Below, piece after piece: positions 39,156 to 56,952 of a DNA stretch of 64,000 nucleotides. Position 1 is the first letter of the stretch, and each line of letters begins with the position of its first letter. The translations under genes were made by a program, and so were the position numbers. Source of the DNA: Planctomycetota bacterium (GTDB lineage Bacteria; Planctomycetota; PUPC01; DSUN01). Where the stretch lies: contig DATKZY010000144.1 of NCBI GenBank assembly GCA_035527715.1, positions 4,444 through 68,443 on the forward strand. Direction: 5' to 3'. A model generated the notes under the pieces. It had not been told where the DNA came from. It ran no database searches and worked only from the letters and a program-made list of their open reading frames with translations.

Positions 39156-40457
39156 ATGATGGCAAGCAACAGAAGCACAACCGTGTGGGCCCTGGTCGCC
39201 GTGGTGATAGCAGGATTCGCCTTCAATGCAGCGGCGGACGCCGCCAAACCGCTGAAGGTCTACATCCTGGCCGGGCAGTCCAATATGCAGGGGCATGCCA
39301 AGGTCGAGACGTTCGACTACATCGGCGACGACCCGGCCACCGCGCCGTTGCTCAAGGACATGCGCGGCCCCGACGGCAAGCCGCGCGTCTGCGAGAAGGT
39401 GTGGATATCCTATCTCACGGGATCTAGAGACGGCAACGGCGAAGGGTTTGGCAAGTTGACGGCCGGGTATGGGGCTCGCAGCGACCCCGCCGAAGACGGC
39501 GGCAAGATCGGCCCGGAGTTCCCCTTTGGCCTCACCATGGAAAAGGCGACCGACGGACCGATCCTGATCATCAAGACCGCGTGGGGCGGCAAGAGCCTGC
39601 ATACCGATTTTCGCCCGCCGAGCGCCGGACCTTACGAATTCAATGACGCGCAGTTGGAGGGCCTCAAGAAGCAGGGCAAGGATATTGAAAAGGTCAAAGC
39701 CGACAAGGCGAAAGCGACGGGACACTACTATCGCCTGATGACCGACCATGTGAAGAAGGTCCTGGCAGACATCAAGCGGGTCGTGCCGGACTACGACCCC
39801 AAGCAGGGCTACGAGATCGCCGGGTTCGTCTGGTTCCAGGGCTGGAACGACATGTGCGATCCTGGCACGTATCCCAACAGCAGCAAGCCCGGCGGATACG
39901 CCAAGTACAGCGAGTGGATGGCGGACTTCATTCGCGACGTCCGCAAGGACCTCAACGCCCCCAAGATGCCCTTTGTCATCGGCGTCATCGGCGTGAACGG
40001 CGATAAGGCCACTGGCGGGTTAGCCCATATCCGGCCTGCCATGGCTGCTCCGGCAGAGATGCCCGAGTTCAAAGGCAATGTCGCTGCAGTCCAGACGGCG
40101 CCATACTGGGACGAGCCTTTGGCGGACATCGAGGCGAAGCACGGCAAGATCGGGAAGGTGAGCTACTACCTGAGGAAAGGGGGCGTACCGGGGGCGGTGG
40201 TGTCCAGTAATTACCCGATAGCCTACTTGCTGCGGAAACAATACTGGGATACCCCGGCCGAAGACCGCAAGATGACCAAGGAGGAGCAGCAGGCCTATAT
40301 GAAAGAGTACCGAGCCAAGCTGATCACCCCCGAGGATGAAGCCATGTGGCAGCGCGGCGCCTCCAACGCCGGCTACCACTACCTCGGCTGCGCCAAGACC
40401 ATGGCGCTGATCGGCAAGGCCTTTGCCGAGGCCATGCTGGAGATGGAGAAGAAGTGA
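39156..40457 (+). CDS. Sialate O-acetylesterase-like / DUF303 (SGNH-type) carbohydrate esterase
   Basis: AAGGAG RBS. Signal peptide. Hallmark LKVYILAGQSNMQG. GFVWFQGWNDM. Confidence 0.75.
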   Translation: MMASNRSTTVWALVAVVIAGFAFNAAADAAKPLKVYILAGQSNMQGHAKVETFDYIGDDPATAPLLKDMRGPDGKPRVCEKVWISYLTGSRDGNGEGFGKLTAGYGARSDPAEDGGKIGPEFPFGLTMEKATDGPILIIKTAWGGKSLHTDFRPPSAGPYEFNDAQLEGLKKQGKDIEKVKADKAKATGHYYRLMTDHVKKVLADIKRVVPDYDPKQGYEIAGFVWFQGWNDMCDPGTYPNSSKPGGYAKYSEWMADFIRDVRKDLNAPKMPFVIGVIGVNGDKATGGLAHIRPAMAAPAEMPEFKGNVAAVQTAPYWDEPLADIEAKHGKIGKVSYYLRKGGVPGAVVSSNYPIAYLLRKQYWDTPAEDRKMTKEEQQAYMKEYRAKLITPEDEAMWQRGASNAGYHYLGCAKTMALIGKAFAEAMLEMEKK

Positions 40458-40828: not shown

Positions 40829-42058
40829 TCATCGTGCCTGGATGTCGTAGGCGGACAGGCAGTCGCTGTGGCGGAGGTAAAGGCGGCCGCCGGAGACGAC
40901 TGGGTGCGCCCAGAAGAGGCCAGGGCCGGCCTTCGGCAACTGGAACTGGCTGACGACCCGCCGCCCGGCCGGCGAGGGCTGGATGAGCATCACCCGCCCC
41001 CGCTCGTCCATCGCGTAGATCATCCCGTCGGCATAGGTCACGGAGCCGCCGACGCCGGTCGGCTCCGAGTGCATGAGCTTGCCCGTCTGCCACTCCAGGC
41101 AGTCCCAGCGCGGCTTGTAGTTGCCGTGGCAGAAGCCGTAGAGATAGCCGTCGAGGAGGATGACCCCGCCGTGATGGCTGTCGAGCTTGTCAGTGCTCCA
41201 GGCCAGCTCGACGGAGCATTTCCTGCCCTCGACGTTGAGCTTGAGGAGGCGGCTGCCGCGGGCGTGGGCCGTGGCGAAGTAGATGTGCCCGTCGTGGAAG
41301 AGCGGCGTGAAGATGCTCTCGTCGTACGGCGTCACGTGCTCGACCTTCCAGAGAAACTCCCCCGTGTCGGCGTTCACGCCGACAATGGCCTTGGCCATGA
41401 GGGTGACGACTTGGCGAAGGCCCTGGTGCTCGACGAGGATGGGCGAGGCATAGCCGGGCTTCTCACCGATGCCTCTGGCCGTCCACACTGTTTCGCCCGT
41501 GAGCTTGTTGAGGGCGACGATGCCGACCTCCTCGCCGCCGGGCACGCAGACGAGGCGGTCGCCGTCCACGAGCGGCGACTCGGCGAGGCCCCAGCGGATG
41601 TTGCGCCCGTTGAACTTCTTCAGGATGTTGAGCGACCACAGGGGCTTGCCGCTCCTGGCGTCCAGGCACACGACGTCCCCATCGGAGTTCTCGTGGTAGA
41701 GGCGCCCCCTGTCCACCGTTGGGGTCGAGCGGGTGCCGGGGTGCTCGCGCTTGTAGGCGGGGCCATTCTTCGCGGTCCAGGCCACCTTGCCACCGAGGTC
41801 GAGGGCGGTGATAAGCGTGTCGTTGCCGACGCTGCCTGTGATGTAGATAAGGCCGTGGGCAACCGCCACGCAGGCGAAGCCGTGGCCGATGCCCCTGGCC
41901 GTCCACAGCAGCTTCGGCCCGCCCTCGGGCCATTCCTTCCGCAGGCCGGTTTCGGCCGACGTGTTGTCGCGGCCCGGGCCGTGGAATTGCGGCCAGTCGG
42001 CTCCCGACGCCTGGCCGAGCGAGAGCGCGAGGAGGAGGCCCAAAGGCAGGCTGAACAT
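40829..42058 (-). CDS. Secreted PQQ-repeat beta-propeller protein (BamB/PQQ-enzyme-repeat family)
   Basis: Signal peptide MFSLPLGLLLALSLGQASG. Repeated DWPQFHG...G.LY..., GD.VVCLDA.SGK.LW units. AGGAGG RBS. The track ORF 40829..42553 is over-extended. Confidence 0.75.
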   Translation of the reverse strand: MFSLPLGLLLALSLGQASGADWPQFHGPGRDNTSAETGLRKEWPEGGPKLLWTARGIGHGFACVAVAHGLIYITGSVGNDTLITALDLGGKVAWTAKNGPAYKREHPGTRSTPTVDRGRLYHENSDGDVVCLDARSGKPLWSLNILKKFNGRNIRWGLAESPLVDGDRLVCVPGGEEVGIVALNKLTGETVWTARGIGEKPGYASPILVEHQGLRQVVTLMAKAIVGVNADTGEFLWKVEHVTPYDESIFTPLFHDGHIYFATAHARGSRLLKLNVEGRKCSVELAWSTDKLDSHHGGVILLDGYLYGFCHGNYKPRWDCLEWQTGKLMHSEPTGVGGSVTYADGMIYAMDERGRVMLIQPSPAGRRVVSQFQLPKAGPGLFWAHPVVSGGRLYLRHSDCLSAYDIQAR

Positions 42059-42062
42059 GAGA

Positions 42063-42108
42063 CTGCCTCCTGCGGATGGGTAGTCCCGCAGGAGGCAGTG
42101 TAATGCAC
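42063..42108 (-). promoter_or_regulatory. SD-sequestering 5'-UTR hairpin upstream of the PQQ-propeller gene; copy 2 of the motif at 36690-36736
   Basis: ctgcctcctgcgg-atgggtagtc-ccgcaggaggcag, a perfect 13-bp stem. The 3' arm contains the SD 4 nt before AUG. The 5' flank tgcattacactg is shared with copy 1. Confidence 0.5.
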
Positions 42109-42131
42109 TTGGCGTCGGAAGACAAGGGCGG

Positions 42132-43214
42132 CTACGGCACGAGCTGCTCGATGGGGAAGCGCGACTTGGGCGGAGCGGCGGGGGCCTCATCGGCAGCCTC
42201 GGCGACGAGCTTCGGCGGCTTCGCGGCGCTCTGGGCCTGCCGGAGGGCGGCCAACTCGGCCTTCGCTGCGGCAACGTCGCGGGCGACCGCGAGGGCGATC
42301 TCATCGGGCGGCAGCGGAGGCAGCGGCGCCTCGGCGAGCCGCTCGGCCTTGGCCGGCTTGGGCGCCGGGGCCGAGGCGGTCGCCGGCGCGGGCGGCGCAG
42401 GGGGCGCCAGGGGCGGCGTCGGCTCGGCCGAGGCCAGGGTGGCCGGCTTCGACGCCGACGGGACCTCGGCCGGCGGGCCGAACTCAAATGGCGAGGAGCG
42501 CCTCTCCCCGCGGTCGGCCTTCGCCGCCCGCGCGGGCGGCGCCGAGGCCACAACGGGCGGCTTGGGTGCGGCAGCAGGGGCCGGCGCGGGCGGCGTCGCG
42601 GTCACAGCGGCCGGCTTCGGCGCCGTCGGGGCCTTGGCCACCTTCGTCGTATTCCCTGCCTTCGCCACGCGGGTCTCGGTCACCTCGCTCCGCTCACCGA
42701 ACGGGATCCAGCCGAACCAGCCGCAGAAGAAGTCGGCCATCTTGAAGTAGTTCAGGTTCCACATCACCCCCACGTAGCCGAGATGGAGGTAGTGGACGCA
42801 GGCGGGGCGGTACTTGGTCTTGCCCTCCTTGGCGCTCTGGGCGATGCCGATGACGCCGACCCTGTGGCTCTCCGTGGTGGCCTTGTCCTTGTCGTTGAAG
42901 CCCTTCCAGCTATTCTCCTCGTGGCCCCAGAAGAGCAAGCCGGAGTTGTTCTGGTGGTGCTCGCCGGCGCCCAGCTTGCCGCCGCCCATCCCCACGAAAT
43001 AGCCGTCCACCTTGCTGTACCCCAGCGGCGTGACCATCGGGCAGTTCGCGTAGAGCCCGAACTGCGGCTTCTTCGAGAACGTGAGCCCCAGGTCCATCAT
43101 CTGGCTCGCGTCGGCCCCCCGGTTCCTGAGATACGTGCAGCCCGACGCCCCGGCGACCAGCAGCGCACAAACCGCGATGGACAATCTTTTCCCGTGAACA
43201 ATCCCACTACGCAT
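42132..43214 (-). CDS. Lipoprotein with a conserved Cys/His-containing N-domain and a Pro/Ala-rich low-complexity C-terminus; paralog of 45232..45819
   Basis: Lipobox [43 protein letters not shown]...CVHYLHLGYVG matches the second lipoprotein. C-terminal APAPKP-type repeats. Confidence 0.7.
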   Translation of the reverse strand: MRSGIVHGKRLSIAVCALLVAGASGCTYLRNRGADASQMMDLGLTFSKKPQFGLYANCPMVTPLGYSKVDGYFVGMGGGKLGAGEHHQNNSGLLFWGHEENSWKGFNDKDKATTESHRVGVIGIAQSAKEGKTKYRPACVHYLHLGYVGVMWNLNYFKMADFFCGWFGWIPFGERSEVTETRVAKAGNTTKVAKAPTAPKPAAVTATPPAPAPAAAPKPPVVASAPPARAAKADRGERRSSPFEFGPPAEVPSASKPATLASAEPTPPLAPPAPPAPATASAPAPKPAKAERLAEAPLPPLPPDEIALAVARDVAAAKAELAALRQAQSAAKPPKLVAEAADEAPAAPPKSRFPIEQLVP

Positions 43215-43375: not shown

Positions 43376-44545
43376 CTACAAAACGCCGTAGATGTAGGCC
43401 AGGCAGAAGTACCCGCCGATGAGCACGAACAGCGCGCCCGTCGCCCAGCGCGCCCAGCGCTCGAACTGCGTGAGCCGGTGGAACACCTTGCCCACGGACT
43501 GCGCGCTGAACGCCAGCACCACGGCCACCGCCACCACGGGAACCGCCGTGCCCAGGCCGAAAAGCGTCGGCAACAGCACGCTCGACTGGCTCTGGAGCGC
43601 CAGCCCGAGCAGGCTGCCGAAGAACAGCGCCGCCGACACCGGGCAGAAGGCCAGAGCGAAGAGGATGCCCAGCAGCCCCGCGCCCCACACGCCCATCGCC
43701 TCCACCCGACGCTGCGTCGCCTCGCCCGGCGCGAACCCGCGGAAGCTCAGCTCCACGAGCCGCAACAGCACGATGCCCACGAGGAGGAGGATCGGGCCGA
43801 GGAACCGGTTCATGTACCGCGACAGCGCGGCGGCCACCTGGGCCTTGTAGAGCAGTCCCCCCACGATCAGCGCCGCCAGCACCACGTACACGAGCGTGCG
43901 CCCCACCGTGTACAGCAGGCCCGAGAGCAGCACCTGCCGCGAGCTGCCCACCCGCCGCCCGACGAAGGAGATGGCCGCGATATTCGTCGCCAGCGGGCAC
44001 GGGCTGATCGAGGTCAGGATGCCCAGCCACAGCGCCGACAGCGCGGCGAGCAGCAGCCCCTTCGCCAGCGGCCCCCCGCCGGCGGCCCGCTCGTCCTTGA
44101 GGAACGCCCCCACCGCCCCCTGCACAAACCCGACGAGGCGCGGGCCGTCGTCCAGGTAGTCCCACACCTCCTCCAGGTTCTTGTAGCGCCCCGGCTTGCC
44201 GTCGCGGAACTCGACGAGGACGACCGTGCTGGCGGCGATCTCGTACGCCTTCTCGAAGCCCTCGTTGCCGGGTGCCTGGTAGTTGGCCACGTGCCACTCG
44301 GCCTGCCCCTGTCGCAGCTCTTGCGGGAAGCCCTTCTCGAGCGCCTCGCGCGACAGCCGCTCGATCTTCCGGCACGAATCGCACCGCTTGTTCCCGTGGA
44401 AGTAGTAGACGCTGATGCCATTGAACGGCCCCTGGGCTTCGGCCCTCGCCGTCGGGCCGGGCCGCACCTCCTTCACGACGAGCGTGACGAGGCTCGCCGC
44501 CACGAAGGCCAGGAGGGGCGCCGCGATGAGCCACTTCCATTTCAC
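43376..44545 (-). CDS. DsbD/CcdA-like transmembrane thiol-disulfide electron transporter with an N-terminal thioredoxin-like CxxC domain
   Basis: GTG start with AGGAG 8 nt upstream. N-domain FHGNKRCDSCRK. Multi-pass TM region with conserved Cys (SISPCP, FCPVS), typical of DsbD_2/CcdA. Confidence 0.7.
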   Translation of the reverse strand: MKWKWLIAAPLLAFVAASLVTLVVKEVRPGPTARAEAQGPFNGISVYYFHGNKRCDSCRKIERLSREALEKGFPQELRQGQAEWHVANYQAPGNEGFEKAYEIAASTVVLVEFRDGKPGRYKNLEEVWDYLDDGPRLVGFVQGAVGAFLKDERAAGGGPLAKGLLLAALSALWLGILTSISPCPLATNIAAISFVGRRVGSSRQVLLSGLLYTVGRTLVYVVLAALIVGGLLYKAQVAAALSRYMNRFLGPILLLVGIVLLRLVELSFRGFAPGEATQRRVEAMGVWGAGLLGILFALAFCPVSAALFFGSLLGLALQSQSSVLLPTLFGLGTAVPVVAVAVVLAFSAQSVGKVFHRLTQFERWARWATGALFVLIGGYFCLAYIYGVL

Positions 44546-44559
44546 GAGGGGGACTCCTG

Positions 44560-44790
44560 TCAGGCGAGAAGGGCCTTGATGTCGTCGGACGAGGGCACTT
44601 TGCCCACGAGCTTCACCTTGCCGTCCACCACGAGGGCGGGCGTCATCATCACGCCGAAGGCCAGGATCTGCGCGATGTCGGTCACCTTCTCCAGTTGGTA
44701 GTCCACTCCGAGGGCTTTTGCGGCCGCCTCGGCGTTCTCCGCGAGCTTCTTGCACTTGGGGCAGCCTGTGCCCAGCACCTGAATCTTCAT
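44560..44790 (-). CDS. Small thioredoxin-like 'redox-active disulfide protein 2' (77 aa)
   Basis: MKIQVLGTGCPKCKKL...; the CPKC motif and size are typical of the TM0996/MTH895-type small thioredoxins that accompany ars permeases. Confidence 0.8.
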   Translation of the reverse strand: MKIQVLGTGCPKCKKLAENAEAAAKALGVDYQLEKVTDIAQILAFGVMMTPALVVDGKVKLVGKVPSSDDIKALLA

Positions 44791-44791
44791 C

Positions 44792-45232
44792 TCATTTCTC
44801 CAGCAGCGCGTCCGGCAGGGTTTCCACGAAGGCCCGGATTTCGTCGCGCACGCGCCGGTAGTGCGCGAGGGCCTCTTCCTCGGACTTCGCGCCAGCCGCC
44901 AGCCGCGGCGGGTCGTCGAAGCCCACATGCACGGTCCTCACCCGCCCCGGAAAGAGCGGGCAACTCTCATGCGCATGATCGCACACGGTGATCACGCAGT
45001 CAAACGAAATGTGCCTCAACTCGTCCACGTGCTTCGAGCGATGGGCCGAGATGTCCACCCCCGCCTCGGCCATGACCTGCACGGCTCGGGGGTTGAGCCC
45101 GTGGGTCTCGATGCCGGCCGAGTAGGCATCGAGCAGATCGCCCTTCAGGGCGCGTGCCCAGCCCTCGGCCATCTGGCTGCGGCACGAGTTGCCCGTGCAC
45201 AGGAACAGCACCTTGAGCTCCCGCTTCGCCAT
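44792..45232 (-). CDS. arsC: Arsenate reductase ArsC (LMW-PTP / thioredoxin-coupled type)
   Basis: Signature LFLCTGNSCRSQMAEG, catalytic Cys pattern, ~146 aa. ATG 45230-45232 overlaps the upstream stop as TGATG. Confidence 0.9.
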   Translation of the reverse strand: MAKRELKVLFLCTGNSCRSQMAEGWARALKGDLLDAYSAGIETHGLNPRAVQVMAEAGVDISAHRSKHVDELRHISFDCVITVCDHAHESCPLFPGRVRTVHVGFDDPPRLAAGAKSEEEALAHYRRVRDEIRAFVETLPDALLEK

Positions 45233-45819
45233 CAACGAGGCCCCTTCTGCTCGGCCTCGGGCGCAGCGGGCCTCGGCGGCTCGTTGGGCGCGGTGCCCCC
45301 CTTCACGTCGTCGCCGCTGAGGTCAATGAGGAACCAGCCCAGGAAGAAGTCGGGGATTTCCAGCCAGCAGATGTTGGCGGTGATGCCGACCCAGCCGAGG
45401 TGGAAGTAGTGTTTGCACGAGACGCGGTAGGGCTGCTTGCCCCGTTCGCCGCGGGCGATGGCCAGGAGGCCCACCGGCTGGTCCTCCACCGCCTTGTCGC
45501 CGGCCTTCTCCCCGGCCTTCGCGGGCCCCTGCCAGGTGTTTCTCTCGTAGCCCCAGACCAGGGCGCCGGCATTCCGCTGATGGTGCTCCATCACGCCCAC
45601 CTTGCCGCGGCCCACGCCCGCGTAATAGCCGTCCACCTTGCCGAACCCGATGGGCAGGATCACCGGGCAGTTCATGTAGAGGCCGAACTGCGGCTTCTTC
45701 GAGAACGTCAGCCCCAGGTCGAACATCTCGGCCGCGTCGCGTCCTCGGTTGCGCAGGTAGGTGCAGCCCTGCGCCGCGAGGGCCGCTGCGGCCAGGGTGG
45801 CAAGCAGTCGTTGCCTCAT
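45232..45819 (-). CDS. Lipoprotein, paralog of 42132..43214 (conserved Cys/His N-domain only); embedded in the ars operon
   Basis: Lipobox [40 protein letters not shown]...[15 protein letters not shown]-type overlaps with acr3 upstream and arsC downstream. Confidence 0.7.
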
Positions 45820-47027
45820 GTCTTGCTCCTTTCCTCGGTGGGGAACCAGTGGCGGGTCGCCAGGCAGATCTTCACGAGCATCAGCATCACGGGCACCTCG
45901 ATGAGCACGCCGACCACGGTGGCCAGCGCCGCGCCCGACGAGAGGCCAAAGAGCATCGTGGCCGTGGCAATCGCCACCTCGAAGTGGTTCGACGCGCCGA
46001 TCATCGCCGATGGGGCGGCGTCCTCATAGGTCAGCTTCAGCGGCCTCGACCACCAGTAGCCGAGCCAGAAGATGAGATTCGTCTGGATGAACAGGGGGAT
46101 GGCGATCCACAGGATCGTCAGCGGATTGCCCAGGATCACCTCGCCCTTGAACGAGAACAGGAGCACGAGGGTGATCAGCAGCGCGATGATGGTGACGGGC
46201 GTGAGGACGTGGAGGAACTTCTCCTTGAACCACACGTCGCCCTTGGCCTTGATGAGCCACTTCCGCGAGAAATAGCCCGCGACGAGCGGCAGCGCCACGT
46301 AGATGCCGATCGAGAGCACCAGCGCCTGCCACGGCACGGGCAATCGCCCCACGCCGAGCAGGAAGCCGCCCAGCGGGCCGTAGAGGACGAGCATCGTGAG
46401 CGAGTTGATCGCCACCATCACCAGCGTGTGGCCGTCGTTGCCCTTCGCCAGGTAGCCCCACACGAGCACCATCGCGGTGCAGGGCGCGATGCCAAGGAGG
46501 ATACAGCCGGCCAGATAGCTCCGCCACAGCGGCACCTCGAGCATCTTCGCCCCGTCGTGCAGCACCACCTGCCCCGCGCCATACGTGGCCCCGAGGTCCA
46601 GGTTCTGCCCCAACGGCATCTTTACGTAGTCCTTCGCCTCCGGGCCGATGAAGCCCAGGAAGAGCGTGCCGAGGAAGAACACGGCGATGGCGTACATCGT
46701 GAACGGCTTGATCACCCAGTTCACGAAGAGCGTGAGGCCCACAGGCTTGATGTTTCGGCCTGCCTTCAGCACCTCGCCGAAGTCAATCTTGACCATGATC
46801 GGGTACATCATGAAGAACAGGCACACGGCGATGGGGATGGAGACGACGGGCGCATCGCCCACGCAGATCGCCAGCCCATCCAGGGCCGTGGCGACGCGCG
46901 GCGCCACCTTCCCAAGGGCGATGCCGCCCAGGATGCACAGGGCGACCCACACGGTGAGGTACCGCTCGAAAACGCTCAGGCCCTTCGGCCGCTTCGTGAC
47001 ACAGGCCTCCGACGCCACGTTCGACAT
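45816..47027 (-). CDS. acr3: Arsenite efflux transporter, ACR3 family
   Basis: ~400-aa multi-pass protein. [20 protein letters not shown]-terminus and overall ACR3/ArsB-BART architecture. Start ATG 47025-47027. Confidence 0.8.
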
Positions 47028-47134
47028 CTCCTTCCGTTGTGACACTCCAGCCGAGTGAAGTGCCCGCCCCCACCGACCTTGTGTCGGTGGAGCGAAGGAT
47101 TGGCCACTACGCCAAGCGGCCCTCACCCCCCCAT

Positions 47135-47180
47135 CCCCCTCTCCCCCCGCCCGCCGCGCGGCGGGCGGGGGGAGAGGGGG
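47135..47180. repeat. Perfect 23-bp GC palindrome (46 nt) followed by G-runs, between the radical SAM gene and acr3
   Basis: ccccctctccccccgcccgccgcg|cgcggcgggcggggggagaggggg then agaagagggggagg. Confidence 0.7.
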
Positions 47181-47283
47181 AGAAGAGGGGGAGGCTCACG
47201 GCACAGTAGTTGCCAATCCCTCGCTCCACTGGGGCAAGCCCAGTGGGGGCGTGCACATCAGTCGGGCGAAGTGTTACCTTCAG

Positions 47284-48441
47284 CTATGGGCATTGCACAA
47301 TCCCCGCGGCCCACAGGCACTCGCCGCAGCGGGGGAAATCGTCGCCGAAACAGTCCTCCTCGTTGTCGCGCCGCAGGTCGCAGCCGCCGCACTCGATGCA
47401 GGGGGCGAAGGCGAACTCGCGGACGCGCCCGCGGAAGGCCCGATACTCGCCGCCCTGCCACAGGTCCTTGAGCCGCGTCTCGTGGATGTTCCCCAGGACG
47501 TAGCGGCGGGCGCGTTTCGCCTTATCGCGGAAGTAGTAGGTGTGCGAGTGGAGCAACGGCAGGCAGGGGCTCACCGCGCCGTCCCAACGGATGGCCAGCC
47601 GCCCCTCGGCGACGAAGGGGCAGCGGGGGTCGGCCCCCGCAACGTCGGCACCGTTCCTCCGCAGCCGGGTGCCCGTGGCGCGCATCCGCTCGACCACCCC
47701 GCTCGCCGCGGAGCGCGGGTCCATCAGCGGCAGGTCCACGGCAGGGTCCCACGGGGTGATGAGGTGCCGACGCGACGCGGTGGTCCACTGGTCGTACAGG
47801 ATGTCGCCCGCCAGCTCGGGCGTGTGCGGCACGAGGTTGGTGACCAGCACGCCCGTGAAGCCGAGCTGGGGCGCGAGCCGCACCAGGGCCGGCAGCTCGC
47901 CGATGTTGCGCTTCGTGGCCACGAACTCGATGACGACCTCGGGGTACGCGACGTTGTGCAGCACGCGCAGGCGATGAAACGCTCGCAGGTTGCCCTCGAC
48001 GGCTGGGAACGTCCCCGCGTGCAGGCTCTGGCTCGCGTCGCCGCTCAAGCCGTCCACCGACACGATCAGCTTGTCGAGCCGCAGCTTGATGAGCCGCTCC
48101 ATCGCCTCGGGCGTCAGAAGCAGGCCGTTGGTGACCGCCTCGACGGCGAACCGCGCGCCCTTGGCGAGGGCGACGAACTCCACGAAGAGCGGGTGCGCCA
48201 TCGGCTCGCCGTAACCGCTGAAGTTCAGGGTGGCCAGGCCCGGCAGTTCGGCGCACTGCTCGACGACGCGGCGAAACGTGGCCAGCGACATCTCCCCGCC
48301 CGGCTCCTCGAAGGCGCGGCGCAGGCACATCGCGCAGTCGAGGTTGCACGCCGTCGTCAGCTCGACGTATGCCTTTCGTGGCGCATCGTCGCCGCCGCCC
48401 CGCGCCTCCCGACGCACTGGAGGGATCACCTCGATCAGCAT
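47284..48441 (-). CDS. Radical SAM enzyme with C-terminal SPASM/twitch Cys-rich domain
   Basis: CNLDCAMC (Cx3Cx2C) near the N-terminus. SGYGEP. C-terminal CPFVAEGRLAIRWDGAVSPC...CIECGGC...CFGDDFPRCGEC. The track start is GTG 48498; the ATG at 48441 is also possible. Confidence 0.75.
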   Translation of the reverse strand: MLIEVIPPVRREARGGGDDAPRKAYVELTTACNLDCAMCLRRAFEEPGGEMSLATFRRVVEQCAELPGLATLNFSGYGEPMAHPLFVEFVALAKGARFAVEAVTNGLLLTPEAMERLIKLRLDKLIVSVDGLSGDASQSLHAGTFPAVEGNLRAFHRLRVLHNVAYPEVVIEFVATKRNIGELPALVRLAPQLGFTGVLVTNLVPHTPELAGDILYDQWTTASRRHLITPWDPAVDLPLMDPRSAASGVVERMRATGTRLRRNGADVAGADPRCPFVAEGRLAIRWDGAVSPCLPLLHSHTYYFRDKAKRARRYVLGNIHETRLKDLWQGGEYRAFRGRVREFAFAPCIECGGCDLRRDNEEDCFGDDFPRCGECLWAAGIVQCP

Positions 48442-48508
48442 GCGCACCTCAGCCTCTCCCCAAGGGAGAGGGGGGATGGTCGCCTCCCCGCCAAGCACGT
48501 ACGCCGGC

Positions 48509-49210
48509 TCATCCGGCGATTCCCGCCATCTTCAGGGCGACCTCGGCCACGCGGCGGCCGAGGTTTTTCGCGGTGCCCAGGCCGAGCTCGTCGCCGCTGA
48601 TGTCGTCCTTGTTGTTCCACAAGGTCGCGCCGCGATGGGCGGTCGGCCGGCCGTCGCCCACAATGAGCATCTCGTGGCACATCAAGGCCGCCTGGATGCA
48701 CTGAATCGTCAGCTCCTGCCCGCCGTTGCGGTTGCCGCCCACAGCCACGACGCCCGCCACTTTGCCGCTGAGCGGGAAATTCGCCTTGCGGAAGACCACC
48801 CAACGGTCCAGGAACGCCTTGCACAGGGAACTCATCGAGCCGAAGTAGACGGGTGAGCCGACGATGATGCCGCCCACCTTCGGGTCGCTGAGCTTCGGCG
48901 CCAGCTTCAGGAAATCGTCCTCCTGCCCCGCCGGCAGCGGCACGCCGGCGGCCACGGCGCCGTTGATGTTCATGTCCGCCAACTCGATCAGCTCGACCTC
49001 GATGGCCGGGCTGGCCGCCTTCGCGGCGTCCAGGACCGCCTGGACGGCCGCCGCGGTGGTCTTGCCCTTCCGCGGGCTGCACGCGACGCCGACGATCTTC
49101 ACGCCCTTCGCCGGCGCAGGGGCCTCCGCCGCCAGGGCCTGGGCGGCCCCAGCCGCCACCGCGCCGCCCACGAAGCCCAGGAACGCACGCCGCCTCACAT
49201 CATCTGCCAT
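48509..49210 (-). CDS. TAT-exported NADPH-dependent FMN reductase family flavoprotein (ArsH-like fold, predicted periplasmic)
   Basis: GAGGAG RBS. MADDVRRRAFLGFVGGAVAAGAA twin-arginine signal. KIVGVACSPRKGKTT and SPVYFGSMSS flavodoxin-like motifs. Confidence 0.7.
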   Translation of the reverse strand: MADDVRRRAFLGFVGGAVAAGAAQALAAEAPAPAKGVKIVGVACSPRKGKTTAAAVQAVLDAAKAASPAIEVELIELADMNINGAVAAGVPLPAGQEDDFLKLAPKLSDPKVGGIIVGSPVYFGSMSSLCKAFLDRWVVFRKANFPLSGKVAGVVAVGGNRNGGQELTIQCIQAALMCHEMLIVGDGRPTAHRGATLWNNKDDISGDELGLGTAKNLGRRVAEVALKMAGIAG

Positions 49211-49221
49211 GGCCGTTCTCC

Positions 49222-50523
49222 TCAAAGGACACCGAAGGTCAGGCCGACCACTGTGGACATTATGGCCACCAGGATGCAGAAGACAAGCGTCTTCTTCCAG
49301 CCCATCACCTTCCGCAGCACGAGGATGCTGGGGATCGAGAGCGCCGGCCCCGCCAGCAGCAGCGACAGGGCCGGGCCCTTCGCCATCCCCAGGTCCATCA
49401 GCGCCTGCGTGATCGGTATCTCGGTGAGCGTGGCGAAGTACCAGAGCATCCCCGCGAACGAGGCCACGAAGTTCGCCAGCAGGCCGTTGTCGCCGACGAG
49501 GGCCGCCACGCTCTTCTCGGGGATGAGATGGGAGATGAATCCCGTGATGAACACGCCGCCAAACAGCAGCGGCACAATCATCTTGCCAAACGTCCACGTC
49601 GCGTCCAGCCACTCCTTGACCTCTTTGCGGCTGAACCAGCGCCAGAGCATCAGCAGCACGGCGAGCCCCATCGCCCCGGCCAGGTGCCACTTGATGCTGT
49701 GGACGGCCATCGTGAAGCTGGGGACGGGTTTCGCCGACGCGATGTCGGCCTTTGCCAGCCGCTGCACCTCGGGGTCGAGATGACCGCTGGGCAGATAGGC
49801 CTGCACGTCCAGCGCGTCGGTCGTCTTGTAGCGGACGTTGGCCTGGAAGGCCCGCCCGTCCCGCATCACGATCGTCACGTCGTTCGTGTTGAACCAGTCG
49901 CTGAAGACGAGGAACAGCACCATCGCGGCGAAGAAGAGGGCCGTCTGCCACAGGCGGCGGGGGCTGGCCGGCGGCTCAGGGAGTTGCATGACCGCCTCGA
50001 CCCGCCTCTTCTCCGCGTGGCGGAAGAAGAAGGCCATGAGCAGCCCGATCACGTAGGCGAAGGCCACGGAGCCGACGACCCGCGCCACGCCGAGGTCCAG
50101 GCCCAGCACGCGGGCCGACAGGAAGATAGCCATCACATTGATCGCCGGCCCGGAGTAGAGGAACGCGCTCCCCGGCCCCAGTCCCGCGCCCATCGCGTAG
50201 ATGCCCGCGAACATCGGCAGCACGCTGCACGAGCATACCGCCAGGATCACCCCCGACACCGCCCCCACCGTGTAGGCCAGGAAGCGATTCGAGTTCGGCC
50301 CCAGATACCGCATCACCGAGGCCTGCGACAGGAACGTGCCGATCGCCCCCGCGATGAACATCGCCGGCACCACGCACGCCAGCGTGTGCTCGCGCACGTA
50401 CCATTGGAGCAGCCGAAACGCCTCGTGCACTGCCCCCGACACCTTCGGGTCCGAGAACGGCACGAAGTAGAAGAACACGAAGATGCCGACCAGGACCGCC
50501 AGGGTCTTCAGCTCTCTCCGCAC
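49222..50523 (-). CDS. ArsP-like / DUF318 permease (organoarsenical permease family) with the CSCS motif
   Basis: Multi-pass TM protein. ILAVCSCSVLPMF resembles the ArsP TPFcSCS signature. GTG start with GGAGA 5 nt upstream. Confidence 0.6.
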   Translation of the reverse strand: MRRELKTLAVLVGIFVFFYFVPFSDPKVSGAVHEAFRLLQWYVREHTLACVVPAMFIAGAIGTFLSQASVMRYLGPNSNRFLAYTVGAVSGVILAVCSCSVLPMFAGIYAMGAGLGPGSAFLYSGPAINVMAIFLSARVLGLDLGVARVVGSVAFAYVIGLLMAFFFRHAEKRRVEAVMQLPEPPASPRRLWQTALFFAAMVLFLVFSDWFNTNDVTIVMRDGRAFQANVRYKTTDALDVQAYLPSGHLDPEVQRLAKADIASAKPVPSFTMAVHSIKWHLAGAMGLAVLLMLWRWFSRKEVKEWLDATWTFGKMIVPLLFGGVFITGFISHLIPEKSVAALVGDNGLLANFVASFAGMLWYFATLTEIPITQALMDLGMAKGPALSLLLAGPALSIPSILVLRKVMGWKKTLVFCILVAIMSTVVGLTFGVL

Positions 50524-50560
50524 GTTCGTCTCCTATGCCCCGCCCGCGCCGGCGAGGGTC

Positions 50561-50584
50561 ACATTCTCACATTCTACAGAATGT
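50561..50584. promoter_or_regulatory. Candidate ArsR operator: direct repeat ACATTCTC ACATTCTA overlapping the 7-2-7 inverted repeat ACATTCTacAGAATGT
   Basis: Read directly in the 160-bp gap between arsR and the permease. A second inverted repeat, ggccgat-ggcgg-atcggcc, lies at ~50619-50637. Confidence 0.35.
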
Positions 50585-50683
50585 TGGAACATCGCCTGGC
50601 CCGCGCTGCTTGCGGCGGGCCGATGGCGGATCGGCCAACTCGCCAAGCCTGCACGCAAAGAAAAAGCCACTCGACACCGCAGA

Positions 50684-51016
50684 TCACTCCCCGCGTCGCC
50701 CGGCCAGAGCGAGCTGCTCCCGCGCCGTCGAGGCGATGACCGACTCCACGCAGTCGAAGAACTGGAGGATGCACGGGCAGCGGAGCGCGTAGTAGACCTG
50801 CGAGCCGCGCTTGTCGTCCGACGCGATCCCCGCGCCCCGCAGGATGGCCAGGTGCCTGGAAACCGTGGACATGTCCGCCCCCACCATCTCGGTGAGCTCG
50901 CACACGCACTTCTCGCCCCGCGAGAGGGCGTCCACGATGAACAGCCGCGTCGGATGGGCCATGGCCTTGACGATCCGGGCCCTGGCCTCCATGCGTGCCT
51001 GGGTCTTTGCATCCAC
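50684..51016 (-). CDS. arsR: ArsR/SmtB-family metalloregulatory transcriptional repressor
   Basis: HTH ELTEMVGADMSTVSRHLAILRGAGI and metal-site CVCEL. GTG start with GGAAGGAGG 6 nt upstream. Start coordinate may be off by 1 nt. Confidence 0.8.
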   Translation of the reverse strand: MDAKTQARMEARARIVKAMAHPTRLFIVDALSRGEKCVCELTEMVGADMSTVSRHLAILRGAGIASDDKRGSQVYYALRCPCILQFFDCVESVIASTAREQLALAGRRGE

Positions 51017-51396
51017 GGCATTCCTCCTTCCAAACACTTGGCAGTATCCCCAACTCGCCAAGCCCTGTCAACCCAATATCGCGCCGACACGCCCGAATGG
51101 CACCAATGCAAGGGACTCAGGCCCGCCCAAAGGGCGGCAGGGGATACCGCACGAGCGTCTGGCATGAACCAGTCGTGGTGGCGCCGTGAAGGGCGAGCAA
51201 TCCCATTGGGGCAACATGCCCTCAATTTTCAGTTTTTCTGGCCTCACCCGGCGCCCTGGGCCACTGCCGCCTGGCACTACAACGCTGGATTCCCCCCCCC
51301 CCAGCCGCGGGGTGGGACATCTATAGGTGATTGAGCTCCAACTGGGAGGCAGGGGGGCGCGGATGTGCCTGGGTTGGGTTTCCTGGAGCGTGTTGC

Positions 51397-52485
51397 CTAC
51401 TCCTTCGCTGCCGGTGCGAAGCCGTATTTCTGCTTCGCGGTGTCGCAGGCCTTCTTGATCTGGGCGCTGTGGTCGGTGGGGGTGGGCTTGAGGAGGCCGA
51501 GCATGGCCTTGCCGAAGGCCTCGCCGATGCGGAAGAAGGTGTCGGCTCGGCCACGATAGTGGTAGCCGCCGTCGAACTGCGGGCCGTCGAAGACCATGTA
51601 GGGGCCGGTCGGGACGTAGCGGACCGTGTCCTTGAACTCGGGCATCTTCGACACGCTTTCCTGCTGGGCACGGAAGCTCATGTGCTTGGCGCGGTAGCGC
51701 TCGGGGATCTGCTGCTCGGTGCCGCTCTGGCCCAGCTCGCCGACGATCATGGGCAGGTCGGGCGCGCCGAGGTCGGTGCGCAGGTCGCGCAGCAGGTTCG
51801 CCAGGTTCGGCCCGTATTCCTTGTGGTGCGCGGCGTCGAGCATGTCGTTCCAGCCCTGGAACCAGACGAAGCCCGAGATTTCGTAGCCGGAACCGTCGTA
51901 TTCGGGGAAGAGTGTCTTGAGGTTGGCCAGGGTCTCGTGGGTGAGGCGGACGAGTTCGCGGTAGTTGTAGCCGATGAGCTTGGCGGGGTCGCCCTCGAAC
52001 TTCTTCCTCTTCGCGAGGTCGGCGAGCCACTGGGCGTCGAAGTCGCCCTGGCCCGAGCTGGGCGGGCGGAAGTCGAATCGCAGGCTCCTGCCGCCCCAGG
52101 AGATCTTGATGAGCAGCACGCGCTCCTTGAGGCGGTCGCCGACGACGTGGCCGAACTGAAGCTCGGCGCCAAAGCGATCGGGCGGGTTGGCGTAGCCGAC
52201 GGTGAGCGGGCCTTTCTTGTCAATCTTGTCGCCGTTCGTGTAGCGGATCAGGACATCGGGCCGCTCGGCCCACTTGTCGCCGTCGCGCAGATGGCGGTAG
52301 GTGGGGGCCGTCTTCTCGTCGGCGAGGAGCTGCTCGAGGTGTTTGATCGAGCCCTTGCCCTCCATGTTCGACTGGCCGGACAGGATGAACACGCGCCACG
52401 GGCCGGGCGCCGGGGCGTCGGCCGCGCGGGCCGCGGTGGCGAGTGTGAGGGCCGCGGCCGCAAGGGTTGCTCTTCTCATCCACAT
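51397..52485 (-). CDS. Sialate O-acetylesterase-like / DUF303 carbohydrate esterase (paralog of 39156..40457)
   Basis: Signal peptide. WRVFILSGQSNMEG. GFVWFQGWNDM. Confidence 0.75.
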   Translation of the reverse strand: MWMRRATLAAAALTLATAARAADAPAPGPWRVFILSGQSNMEGKGSIKHLEQLLADEKTAPTYRHLRDGDKWAERPDVLIRYTNGDKIDKKGPLTVGYANPPDRFGAELQFGHVVGDRLKERVLLIKISWGGRSLRFDFRPPSSGQGDFDAQWLADLAKRKKFEGDPAKLIGYNYRELVRLTHETLANLKTLFPEYDGSGYEISGFVWFQGWNDMLDAAHHKEYGPNLANLLRDLRTDLGAPDLPMIVGELGQSGTEQQIPERYRAKHMSFRAQQESVSKMPEFKDTVRYVPTGPYMVFDGPQFDGGYHYRGRADTFFRIGEAFGKAMLGLLKPTPTDHSAQIKKACDTAKQKYGFAPAAKE

Positions 52486-52973
52486 GGCGGGTCTCCTTTG
52501 CTCTTGGCGCGGGCGATCGGCCCCAGCGTGCCGTTCGTCGCGCGCAGATAATCGTTGGGGGCGAGGAGGAGCTGGGTGCCGCGCACGCCGGCGGAGATGG
52601 CGACGCGGTCGTGGAGGACGATCTCCTCGGCCACGAAGACGGGATAGTCCCTCTTGCCGCCGAGAGCCGTCACGCCGCCGCGGATGTAGCCGGTGAGGGG
52701 CTGGACCTCGCGGAGGGGGACCATCTCGACCTTGCGGTCGCCCGAGAGGCGGGCGAGGGCCTTGAGGTCCAGCTCGGCGTCGCCGGGCACGACGGCGAAG
52801 GCCACGCCGTTGCGGTCGCCACGCACGACGAGGGTCTTGAACACCTGTTCGGGGGGCATGCCGATCTTGGCGGCGACGGATTCGGCGGTCAGGTCGTCGG
52901 GGTCCACCTCGTACTCACGCAGCTCACAGGCGATGGCGAGGCGGTCGAGGATGCGGGCGGCGTTGGTCTTCAT
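52476..52973 (-). CDS. ybaK: Cys-tRNA(Pro)/Cys-tRNA(Cys) deacylase YbaK
   Basis: MKTNAARILD...GGVTALGGKRDYPVFV... follows the YbaK/ProX pattern. ~165 aa. Start could also be 53001-53006. Confidence 0.7.
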   Translation of the reverse strand: MKTNAARILDRLAIACELREYEVDPDDLTAESVAAKIGMPPEQVFKTLVVRGDRNGVAFAVVPGDAELDLKALARLSGDRKVEMVPLREVQPLTGYIRGGVTALGGKRDYPVFVAEEIVLHDRVAISAGVRGTQLLLAPNDYLRATNGTLGPIARAKSKGDPPCG

Positions 52974-53015
52974 GACTATCCGACCCGGGAACCGCTCACC
53001 CATCACCGCAACACT

Positions 53016-54449
53016 TCACCCGTCTGAAGTGGACGCCCCGGCCGAGGCAAGCTCGGTGCCTGCCGTCTGGCAGGCGGAGTGTCTCGAGGCCAGGTGACGC
53101 TGGAAGTCGGCGTAGGCATTGCCGTCCACGCGGATGTTGCTCCTGTAGGAGAGATTGCCGACCAGGCTGATCAGCGGCTGGCGGCGGCGCCACACACTGT
53201 CCCACACCCTGCGCAGGATGCGCGGCAGGGAATAGAAGTTCCGGCCGCATGAGAGCATCTCTTCGATGATGTCCGCCCGGGACAGGTGCTTGTACCGGGC
53301 CACGGGGAAGGTGAGCGTGTAGTATCTCCAGTCTTCCGGGAACCTGTCGAGGGCGAGGCGGTTCTCCGACCTCATCTCGTCCCACAGGCGCGTGCCGGGC
53401 AGGGGCGTCAGAAACAGCGTGTTCAGATTGTCCACCCCATACTCGGTGGCCGCGTCGGCGATGCATTTGCCGATGCCCGGTTCGTCTACGTCCAGGCCGA
53501 TGATGAAGGAGCCCACGACCAGGATGTGGTGCCGCTGGATGCGCCGCACGGAGGCGCGGAAGTCGCGTCCCTTCAGCAGGTTGAACTTCTTGCCGATCTC
53601 CCGGAGCCCCTCCGGCGTGGGGGATTCAAAGCCGATGAAGACGCCTCGGCAGCCGGCCTTCGCGGCCAACGTCAGGAGCTCTTCGTCGTCGGCGAAGTTG
53701 ATGGTGGCCTGGCCGACCCATTCCTTGCGCAGGTTCGCCTGGGCCAGGGCGCGGAACAGGTCCTTCGCGCGGGCGATGTGCTCGGGTCGCGTGCCGATGA
53801 GGTTGTCGTCTACCACCAGCACGTGCTTCTCGCGAATCGCCGTGAACTCGCGCACGACATCCGGGATCGGCCGCTGCCGGTACTTGGCGCCGTTGAAGGC
53901 CGTGACGCTGCAAAAGGTGCAGTTCAGGGGACAGCCGCGTGTGGTCTGGACGGCCCCAAAGGCGTATCGCGGAGGCAGCAGGTCGTGACGGGCAAGCGGG
54001 ACGGCATTCATGTCGGCGAGCCCGCCGTCGTACCGGCGCTTCAGGTGGCCTTGGCGGGCGTCGTCCAGGACCTGCGCCCACACGCCTTCGGCTTCCCCTG
54101 TGACGACCGAGTCCACGCGCTCCGCGACCTCGTCGAGGCACATTGTGGCGTGGATGCCGCCCATGACGACGGGCACACCCAGGCTCCGGAAGTGCGCGGC
54201 GACTTCATAGCCGCGGTTCGCCTGCGAGGTGAACGCCGTGATGCCCACCAAGTCGGGCCGCGGCAGGGCCGCGTAGTCCGGCGCGCCCAGGTTCTCGTCC
54301 ACGATCGTGATGTCCCACTCCCGCGGGGTCAGGCCCGCGAGAACCATGAGGCCAAGCGGCTTCCACACGCGGTAGCGGTTCCAGCGGCTCTCCTTGATGT
54401 TGACGATGCTGACGAGCGGGTTGGCGGGGTTGATCAGATAAAGTCGCAT
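53016..54449 (-). CDS. B12-binding-domain radical SAM protein (class B)
   Basis: N-terminal Rossmann-like B12-binding region (ITAFTSQ...VVMGGIHAT). Radical SAM core RGCPLNCTFCSV. Confidence 0.7.
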   Translation of the reverse strand: MRLYLINPANPLVSIVNIKESRWNRYRVWKPLGLMVLAGLTPREWDITIVDENLGAPDYAALPRPDLVGITAFTSQANRGYEVAAHFRSLGVPVVMGGIHATMCLDEVAERVDSVVTGEAEGVWAQVLDDARQGHLKRRYDGGLADMNAVPLARHDLLPPRYAFGAVQTTRGCPLNCTFCSVTAFNGAKYRQRPIPDVVREFTAIREKHVLVVDDNLIGTRPEHIARAKDLFRALAQANLRKEWVGQATINFADDEELLTLAAKAGCRGVFIGFESPTPEGLREIGKKFNLLKGRDFRASVRRIQRHHILVVGSFIIGLDVDEPGIGKCIADAATEYGVDNLNTLFLTPLPGTRLWDEMRSENRLALDRFPEDWRYYTLTFPVARYKHLSRADIIEEMLSCGRNFYSLPRILRRVWDSVWRRRQPLISLVGNLSYRSNIRVDGNAYADFQRHLASRHSACQTAGTELASAGASTSDG

Positions 54450-54519
54450 GGCCGGCATTCGCTCGTGGAAAAAACTCCCCGTCCTGATCCCGACGCGCGC
54501 TCGTCCCAGGGGAGCTCGG

Positions 54520-56952
<2,433 letters not shown>

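Follow-up and report, generated by a model that had tools for sequence, protein, structure and literature searches.

An extended ars island of an uncultured planctomycete in which a radical SAM/SPASM enzyme, a flavoprotein with a twin-arginine signal and two lipoproteins accompany arsenic-resistance genes

Few detoxification systems have been catalogued as well as the arsenic resistance operons, and even so the enzymes that transform organoarsenicals without O2 are poorly known. The mechanisms of anaerobic demethylation are still called comparatively unresolved (2026 preprint, 10.64898/2026.08.27.747368). A 64,000-nucleotide stretch of DNA from a Planctomycetota bacterium (GCA_035527715.1, contig DATKZY010000144.1, positions 4,444 to 68,443; hereafter the window; G+C content approximately 68%) carries on its minus strand an ars-type cluster in which established ars genes stand together with genes for a radical S-adenosylmethionine (SAM)/SPASM enzyme, a flavodoxin-like flavin mononucleotide (FMN) protein with a twin-arginine signal, and two related lipoproteins. 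Do these accessory genes belong to arsenic handling, and what might they do there? As described below, the locus is probably an arsenic-detoxification island under ArsR control, carried by an uncultured anaerobic planctomycete and built in three layers. Its accessory genes are likely to have a functional tie to arsenic handling; any one reaction proposed for the radical SAM enzyme would have to be called unlikely at best.

The radical SAM, flavoprotein and lipoprotein families were shown to be selectively retained beside ars genes in many genomes and in shuffled order. Because they recur in the ars islands of other anaerobes, the three families are probably undescribed parts of arsenic handling and, as far as we found, they are linked to arsenic here for the first time. 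The literature search yielded no description of a cross-phylum linkage between SPASM-type radical SAM enzymes and ars genes, of the Tat-exported flavoprotein or of the lipoprotein family, none of which is mentioned in the review PMC6205960; a search on SPASM radical SAM enzymes in ars operons, TsoR, and Cmo or AOR maturases returned nothing relevant.

The original prediction, made from the letters of the window alone, had described an extended ars cluster of nine minus-strand open reading frames (ORFs) between 51016 and 43376. The ORF list gave all nine at these coordinates, with Pfam and NCBIfam matches that fit the labels, and the extended ars cluster was borne out by the matches to ArsR, ACR3, ArsC, the ArsP family, ArsE and ArsF-ArsG. 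Its end had to be moved from 43376, since the island was found to extend to a lipoprotein paralogue at 42132-43214. The genes of the island are as follows.

50684-51016, minus strand: ArsR/SmtB repressor (HTH_5, E = 1e-16; NF033788, 86.2 bits, cut-off 55)
49222-50523, minus strand: ArsP_1-family permease with a CSCS motif (PF03773, 253.8 bits, cut-off 32.3)
48509-49210, minus strand: flavodoxin-like FMN protein with a twin-arginine signal (PF03358 FMN_red, 96 bits; FMNred in gene orders)
47284-48441, minus strand: radical SAM/SPASM enzyme (PF04055, 56 bits; PF13186, 50 bits; rSAM in gene orders)
45816-47027, minus strand: ACR3 (Acr3) arsenite efflux permease (TIGR00832, 384 bits, cut-off 282.8)
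45232-45819, minus strand: Lipo1, lipoprotein with lipobox Cys19 (no Pfam or NCBIfam match)
44792-45232, minus strand: thioredoxin-coupled ArsC of the low-molecular-weight phosphatase (LMWP) type (PF01451; best match TIGR02691)
44560-44790, minus strand: ArsE, small cytoplasmic MTH895/ArsE thioredoxin-like protein with CPKC (TIGR00412, 114.3 bits, cut-off 62; PF13192, Thioredoxin_3)
43376-44545, minus strand: ArsF-ArsG fusion (NF040494; NF040495; PF13386, DsbD_2)
42132-43214, minus strand: Lipo2, a paralogue of Lipo1 (47% identity) with a Pro/Ala-rich tail of about 200 residues

The evidence that carries the link to arsenic came from the genomic neighborhoods of the radical SAM enzyme. A one-genome-per-species scan gave 80 loci, which metagenomic relatives raised to 82 non-redundant species-level loci, and an ars-type neighbor was defined as one lying within 7 kb of the radical SAM gene. 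At least one such neighbor was found in 50 of the 82 loci, at least two in 39, and Acr3, ArsC or ArsM in 28, against an expectation for a random gene of about 1%, a figure roughly estimated from the usual genome size and number of ars copies rather than measured. De novo clustering of the neighbors recovered ArsR in 35 loci, Acr3 in 19, AOR in 15, ArsP in 14, a PF04060 Fe-S protein in 13, ArsF/G in 9-12, DGC in 7 and ArsM in 6; the ArsE-like Trx3 protein was recovered in 34 loci, or 39 when tblastn matches were added. The ars linkage was scattered over the entire radical SAM tree, in Planctomycetota, Chloroflexota (Anaerolineae), Thermodesulfobacteriota, Acidobacteriota and NC10. The ArsR proteins beside the radical SAM homologues were mostly of the CVC type, nine of them being encoded 150-450 bp upstream of the radical SAM gene, and ArsG directly preceded that gene in at least seven loci (L016, L021, L023, L045, L065, L081 and L086).

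A comparable picture emerged from the related planctomycete islands among the 97 loci fetched in total for comparison, where the same gene content in shuffled order represents a classical signature of functional coupling. In L095, whose radical SAM enzyme is 75% identical, Lipo2 was found together with an ArsR-ArsP-FMNred-rSAM-Acr3 run identical to that of the window; conservation of the gene order in other genomes was one of the checks proposed with the original prediction. Other islands displayed the orders DsbD-FMNred-Lipo-rSAM-ArsR ... ArsC-Acr3-ArsE-ArsF-ArsG (L096) and, on one strand, ArsR-ArsP-ArsE-FMNred-(DGC)-ArsF-ArsG-rSAM (L008, L016 and L021). L091 carries two flavoprotein copies inside an ArsR-ArsP ... 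Acr3 island, and in L092 and L093 two lipoprotein copies stand amid periplasmic thioredoxins and a membrane protein of the DsbD type, in islands that also hold ArsR, ArsP, ArsC, ArsM and Acr3. Since the same gene set was found again in other genomes, the arrangement is not due to chance. The order ArsC-ArsE-ArsFG-Lipo2-PQQ of the window recurs in L001; the last of these genes encodes a PQQ-like beta-propeller (40829-42130 in the window, minus strand, downstream of Lipo2) that is 85% identical between the two.

The flavoprotein begins with MADDVRRRAFLGF, which reads as a twin-arginine signal (RRRAFLGF...AAQALA), and among 13 homologues R7, R8 and F10 were invariant and L11 was at least 90% conserved (RRxFL). 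Owing to this conserved signal, the protein is predicted to reside outside the cytoplasm. The earlier description as an FMN_red flavoprotein with a TAT signal thus stood, and its assignment to the ArsH type did not, as no ArsH model matched at E = 0.01 or better; the best NCBIfam matches were partial ones to WrbA, and the WrbA structure 4la4 was a distant match (E = 2e-7). The family is very large (3533 matches, most of them 60-70% identical and equal in length), and homologues were located in the ars islands L008, L016, L021, L090, L091, L095 and L096.

The lipoprotein family is small, with 57 homologues, all labelled hypothetical. In the family alignment the lipobox Cys, Cys135 and His140 were invariant, and Cys51 was conserved in the ars-linked clade. 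The predicted model of Lipo1 was confident (pLDDT 84.9) and mostly beta, and it gave no fold match in the PDB. Homologues were found in the ars islands L001, L092, L093, L095 and L096, and the Lipo2 orthologues of L001 and L095, which are 77-80% identical, likewise adjoin ars genes. Lipo2 of the window is preceded by an AT-richer gap of 160 bp with -10-like boxes.

The radical SAM enzyme was confirmed as a SPASM protein by its Pfam matches, and the family alignment revealed invariant cysteines in the CX3CX2C motif (C32, C36 and C39) and at C274, C293, C348, C351, C354, C364, C372, C375 and C384. Its best NCBIfam match was TIGR04317 (tungsten cofactor oxidoreductase radical SAM maturase), which we take to be the 'Cmo' gene beside Pyrococcus aor; the match (E = 4e-89) scored 299.2 bits, below the cut-off of 380, and all others among the 25 best families were at E = 7e-17 or weaker. 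Nine diverse relatives scored 283-312 bits against the same model. In contrast, 502 bits were obtained for the radical SAM protein of an AOR-MoaD-rSAM cassette on a Thermovirga lienii plasmid, which is 32% identical to the window protein and was the single, distant match in a search of a plasmid collection. Because the window protein and all nine relatives fall below the TIGR04317 cut-off, they form, as judged from these scores, a coherent sister family of TIGR04317 without a curated model of its own.

Matches of the enzyme to PDB sequences were weak. Its predicted structure was reasonably confident (pTM 0.80) and, in a Foldseek search, equidistant (TM 0.50-0.58) from BlsE, SuiB, SkfB, DesII, PqqE, CteB and the anaerobic sulfatase-maturating enzyme (anSME); the anSMEcpe match (E = 2.5e-11, TM 0.55) was not better than those to BlsE, SuiB, SkfB, DesII and PqqE. 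The clustering with sulfatase maturases that would have undermined the original prediction was therefore not seen, anSME being absent from the 25 best NCBIfam families as well. ArsS, ArsL, PqqE, MftC and other named radical SAM families were, like anSME, excluded by the NCBIfam scores and the fold search. The protein has no signal peptide, and the Pfam search and the model disclosed neither an RRE/PqqD-like domain nor any other N-terminal recognition domain; roughly 20 residues precede the SAM cluster. Non-planctomycete homologues are longer at the N-terminus by about 45 residues, which had given the impression of an AbrB/SpoVT-like domain, but Pfam returned no match there. As for the precursor peptide that the original prediction had considered, no conserved ORF of this kind was found within 700 bp of the radical SAM gene across the 82 loci; the small-ORF clusters consisted of an ArsE-like protein of about 77 residues, out-of-frame artefacts inside the radical SAM gene, and groups of 3-6 loci without an evident coding signal.

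The established ars genes of the window, namely those for ArsR, ACR3, the thioredoxin-type ArsC and the ArsP-family permease, are ordinary. ArsR belongs to the ArsR/SmtB family and bears the CVC metalloid site in helix 3 (GEKCVCELTEM), and its GTG start coincides with that of the 82% identical ArsR of L095. The ACR3 alignment spans profile positions 1-327 of 327 in TIGR00832. The permease with AVCSCSVLP is a member of the ArsP family and lies below every NCBIfam equivalog cut-off (SO_0444, 108 bits of 300; SaoE, 102 bits of 325); its counterpart at the same position in L095 is 79% identical, and efflux of trivalent organoarsenicals is its predicted function, transferred by homology. ArsC scored 153.8 bits against TIGR02691 (pI258 type), below the cut-off of 174.3, yet this was its best match, and its translation contains the CX5R P-loop (CTGNSCR, residues 12-18) and the pair Cys84/Cys91 (VCDHAHESC). 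In pI258 ArsC the cysteines are Cys10, Cys82 and Cys89, the later two being seven residues apart.

The thioredoxin and DsbD pair, which the original prediction had regarded as unusual, turned out to be already named, since TIGR00412, NF040494 and NF040495 identified ArsE and an ArsF-ArsG fusion above their respective cut-offs. ArsE is a protein of 76 residues with a CxxC motif. In the fusion, an N-terminal membrane anchor is followed by the ArsF part (residues 44-144, with CDSC; NF040494, 90.1 bits, cut-off 60) and by the ArsG part (residues 166-385, a DsbD_2/CcdA-like six-helix region; NF040495, 276.9 bits, cut-off 200), the latter having one cysteine in each half (SPCPL and FCPVS). From this arrangement, ArsE, ArsG and ArsF could be read as a CcdA-type thiol-disulfide relay, in which reducing equivalents would pass outward from the cytoplasmic CxxC protein ArsE through the two-cysteine membrane protein ArsG to the membrane-anchored CxxC protein ArsF. 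An outward-facing ArsF domain would be inferred from the positively charged N-terminus alone. The study of the Shewanella arsEFG genes reportedly observed nitroreduction of trivalent roxarsone or nitarsone, with efflux of the amino product. These genes were described in Shewanella putrefaciens 200 (Chen, Zhang, Rosen 2019, Environ Sci Technol 53:6182, as cited in PMC9144182), and PMC9144182 lists ArsG as an organoarsenical efflux transporter and ArsE and ArsF as organoarsenical resistance proteins.

Consistent with the original prediction, acr3 and the Lipo1 gene overlap by 4 nt and the Lipo1 gene and arsC by 1 nt. According to the ORF coordinates, the gaps are 1 nt between arsC and arsE, 14 nt between arsE and arsFG, 11 nt between arsP and the flavoprotein gene, and 67 nt between the latter and the radical SAM gene. 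This spacing fits with possible translational coupling from acr3 through the last gene. Three intergenic elements were further recognized.

51043-51071, minus strand: promoter-like site TTGACA-17-GATACT upstream of arsR, with box 1 inside it (promoter scan)
50564-50649, minus strand: arsR-arsP intergenic control region, with box 2 and a palindrome in a 12-2-12 imperfect inverted repeat
47121-47194, minus strand: GC hairpin of 74 nt between the radical SAM gene and acr3, containing a 48-bp perfect palindrome

The 15-nt box GGCTTGGCGAGTTGG occurs in two copies, at 51050-51064 (box 1) and at 50635-50649 (box 2, in the arsR-arsP gap). Because L095 keeps it at the same two places, lying between TTGACA and TATAAT upstream of its arsR, the boxes are likely promoter or ArsR-binding elements, and the site at 51043-51071 is a candidate promoter or operator. 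The inverted repeats that had been predicted in the arsR-arsP gap are present and include a perfect 16-bp palindrome, ACATTCTACAGAATGT, at 50569-50584. This AT-rich palindrome occurs once in the window and in none of the 97 fetched loci, the close relative L095 among them; it was rejected as the ArsR operator, and the GGCTTGGCGAGTTGG box appears to be the better candidate. Between the radical SAM gene and acr3, the original prediction was right about the presence of a palindrome and wrong about its size, given as 23 bp. The GC-only hairpin, folded as RNA, reached -92.7 kcal/mol (z = -8.55), has no U tract and is unique in the window; it is not found at the corresponding place in the closest relatives, in which the rSAM-arsC gap (L001) is 16 bp and the rSAM-acr3 gap (L095) is 82 bp. 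Candidate roles for it are those of an attenuator, a processing element or a stability element.

Based on these features, the island would operate in three layers. For inorganic arsenic, where the families are established, ArsC reduces arsenate using thioredoxin and ACR3 expels the arsenite. For organoarsenicals, the ArsP-like permease would expel the trivalent forms, and ArsE, ArsF and ArsG are the counterparts of the Shewanella arsEFG products. The accessory layer would consist of the cytoplasmic radical SAM/SPASM enzyme, the Tat-exported FMN protein and the two copies of the two-cysteine lipoprotein. ArsR, of a family that senses As(III), would on binding it leave the conserved boxes of the arsR and arsP promoters. 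A periplasmic arm is plausible from topology and from the twin-arginine motif; it would comprise the flavoprotein, the ArsF part of the fusion and the lipoproteins and might bind or transform the arsenicals exported by Acr3 and ArsP, or repair dithiols blocked by arsenic. The radical SAM enzyme may perform oxygen-independent radical chemistry on an arsenical, or on a partner that bears a thiol or a dithiolene. The periplasmic redox chemistry on an arsenical and the novel biotransformation route put forward in the original prediction stay conjectural. ArsI is an O2-dependent C-As lyase; that the ars-linked radical SAM enzyme acts directly on arsenic-carbon chemistry, as an anaerobic counterpart of ArsI or as a former of As-C bonds, together with ArsP and a periplasmic arm made up of the ArsE-ArsG-ArsF relay, the Tat-exported flavoprotein and the lipoproteins, seems to us decidedly unlikely. 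If true, it would mean that Planctomycetota, Chloroflexota, Thermodesulfobacteriota and Acidobacteriota share an anaerobic pathway for organoarsenicals that is widespread.

Several observations weigh against an island of this kind devoted to arsenic. No ars-type gene lies within 7 kb in 32 of the 82 radical SAM loci, including those of several of the closer planctomycete homologues (L004, L006 and L010-L015), two of the four sampled flavoprotein contexts (L088 and L089) are not ars islands, and neither is that of the most distant lipoprotein homologue (L094). An electron donor for a flavoprotein in the periplasm is not obvious; outside the cytoplasm there is no NAD(P)H to draw on. The published role of ArsEFG in nitroreduction and efflux is unlike the thiol relay preferred here, which in turn calls the mechanistic view of ArsEFG into question. 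No conserved GGCTTGGCGAGTTGG box was found upstream of acr3, and, because the very stable hairpin divides the radical SAM gene from acr3, the genes need not all share one transcript; acr3 and those after it may be read through the hairpin or from a promoter of their own. Finally, a tungsten-type AOR (AFOR_N plus AFOR_C) is encoded within a few kb in 15 of the 82 loci, so that the radical SAM family may serve a metalloenzyme and not arsenic as such. These AOR-linked members are intermixed with the ars-linked ones in the tree, and seven of the 15 loci also carry ars-type genes, for which reasons a maturase or cofactor role stays the main rival. The window enzyme would then be a metalloenzyme or cofactor maturase, its client being a tungsten or molybdenum oxidoreductase whose gene lies elsewhere in the genome. 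The position of the enzyme in ars islands would reflect regulation, or the shielding of a dithiolene cofactor against As(III), rather than action on an arsenical. We consider this explanation unlikely, if deserving of attention: the best match is to TIGR04317, the Thermovirga cassette contains a true member of that family, and the AOR genes near its own relatives are often joined by a gene for a PF11563 protein, but the window enzyme and its nine sampled relatives all score below the cut-off, no AOR-family gene is encoded anywhere in the 64-kb window, and ArsR, ArsE-like, Acr3 and ArsP neighbors outnumber AOR. The seven shared loci count against this rival too, as the AOR-family enzyme may itself be a member of ars islands.

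Another possibility is that the main target of the island is a different thiol-reactive element (antimony, mercury or organomercurials, selenium or tellurium) or general periplasmic thiol stress, arsenic being one of several inducers. CVC-type ArsR responds to Sb(III) as well and ACR3 transports it, and related islands carry thioredoxin-MerB fusions and extra DsbD and thioredoxin sets. We nonetheless give this possibility little weight, since ArsC in the window and ArsM, frequent in related islands, are specific to arsenic, no homologue of MerB, MerA, MerT or MerP is encoded in the window, and the MerB domains of the relatives reach 27 bits against a cut-off of 200. That the radical SAM/SPASM enzyme merely lies beside the ars genes, as part of a maturation cassette for RiPPs (peptides that the ribosome makes and that are modified after translation) or as an anSME, was largely refuted and is very improbable. 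SPASM domains are typical of peptide and protein maturases, planctomycetes encode many sulfatases, and in L001 an FGE-sulfatase gene lies 6 kb away; against this stand the lack of a conserved flanking small ORF in the 82 loci and of an RRE/PqqD-like domain, protease or ABC exporter, together with the NCBIfam ranking and a fold match to anSME no better than to seven other subfamilies. An arsenic-detoxification island with accessory genes tied to arsenic handling thus remained the preferred reading.

Related islands were observed to hold further genes of interest. Thioredoxin-MerB fusions, in which the alkylmercury-lyase domain is divergent, are encoded in the planctomycete ars islands L008 (6912-8642), L090 (668-1969), L091 (4904-6292), L093 (5559-7016) and L096 (3032-4327), where they adjoin extra thioredoxins and DsbD_TM proteins; the fusion might work as an organometal(loid) lyase on the outer side of the cytoplasmic membrane, beyond the cytoplasm. 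MtrA is a corrinoid-binding methyltransferase subunit, and MtrA-like proteins (NF002126, 185 bits) are encoded in L090 (14843-15529) and L091 (2962-3696) beside ArsC, ArsP and the flavoprotein, a suggestive hint at methyl transfer to or from arsenic. PF04060 'FeS' proteins, of the type at the N-terminus of the ACS/CODH gamma subunit, occur at 13 non-planctomycete radical SAM loci and in L092 (3507-4301), L093 (2098-2892), L095 (13691-14491) and L096 (1771-2559); since the gene is placed after ArsP, as that of the window flavoprotein is, its product may be an alternative redox partner. MerB, MtrA, PF04060 FeS, DGC and C_GCAxxG proteins, all present in related islands, are not encoded in the window. 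In Chloroflexota (L024, L027, L036, L043, L047, L049, L050 and others), the radical SAM gene lies beside genes for a tungsten-type AOR and a protoglobin-domain (PF11563) protein of about 290 residues, the C-terminal half of which was suspected to be MoaD-like, although no MoaD domain was detected; several of these sets are directly downstream of a CVC-type ArsR and close to ArsC or Acr3. In the cultured Anaerolineae member Levilinea saccharolytica KIBI-1 (L082, NZ_LGCM01000039.1), the order ArsR-Acr3-rSAM was found with an ArsE-like gene close by.

Around the island of the window, two paralogues with a GQSNM motif (39156-40457, plus strand, and 51397-52485, minus strand; 35% identity, E = 2e-51) flank the entire ars region in convergent orientation and, from this motif alone, were taken to be SASA (sialate O-acetylesterase)-like. 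Upstream of the island and close to it, the translations of two minus-strand ORFs, read by eye, resemble a B12-binding-domain radical SAM protein (53016-54578) and a YbaK/EbsC-type deacylase (52476-53006); both appear unrelated to the island.

Taken together, the original prediction was supported in part: the extended cluster and its non-canonical members stood, and the novelty of the thioredoxin and DsbD pair and the precursor peptide did not. The core of the cluster is ordinary and its ArsEFG part already named, and the three unannotated families are concrete candidates for new arsenic-handling steps across several anaerobic phyla. They would also offer a better annotation for the thousands of genes that at present bear the label 'radical SAM protein', 'flavodoxin family protein' or 'hypothetical protein', and in L. 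saccharolytica at least one cultured carrier exists.

Comparison with known systems places these families more precisely. The TIGR04317 maturase of T. lienii (pTLIE01, Tlie_1912-1914) shares with the window enzyme its length class, the SPASM cysteine pattern and a CGxCLWAxGxxxCP-type C-terminus, but its cassette includes AOR and MoaD, neither of which is found in the window, and ars genes dominate as neighbors of the window family. ArsL (arsinothricin, PMC8552651) and ArsS (arsenosugars) are also radical SAM enzymes of ars clusters and set a precedent for radical chemistry at arsenic. No specific relationship of the window enzyme to either was detectable, both being absent from its 25 best NCBIfam hits. 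ArsL is limited to the three cysteines of its cluster, at positions 194-201 (PMC8552651), whereas the window enzyme has those at 32-39 and nine further invariant cysteines with a SPASM domain, and it is paired with ArsP, ArsE and ArsG and not with ArsM and ArsQ. The window flavoprotein has the flavodoxin-like FMN_red fold in common with ArsH/WrbA-type FMN proteins, but ArsH is a cytoplasmic NADPH-FMN enzyme and the window protein bears a conserved twin-arginine signal. With the Shewanella arsEFG genes the window shares all three families and the order E-F-G; it differs in that ArsF and ArsG are fused and are accompanied by the flavoprotein and the radical SAM enzyme.

With canonical ars operons (arsR-acr3-arsC; the Campylobacter jejuni arsP operon; PMC6205960), the cluster has in common the CVC-type ArsR, ACR3, the thioredoxin-type ArsC, ArsP and the tight packing of genes. 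The statement of the original prediction that the radical SAM/SPASM enzyme and the twin-arginine flavoprotein lie outside the canonical ars repertoire agreed with this review, and no paper linking them to it was found. Compared with these operons, the cluster of the window is devoid of ArsA, ArsD, ArsB, ArsH, ArsM and ArsI, and it adds ArsE, ArsF, ArsG, the radical SAM/SPASM enzyme, the twin-arginine flavoprotein and the two lipoproteins.

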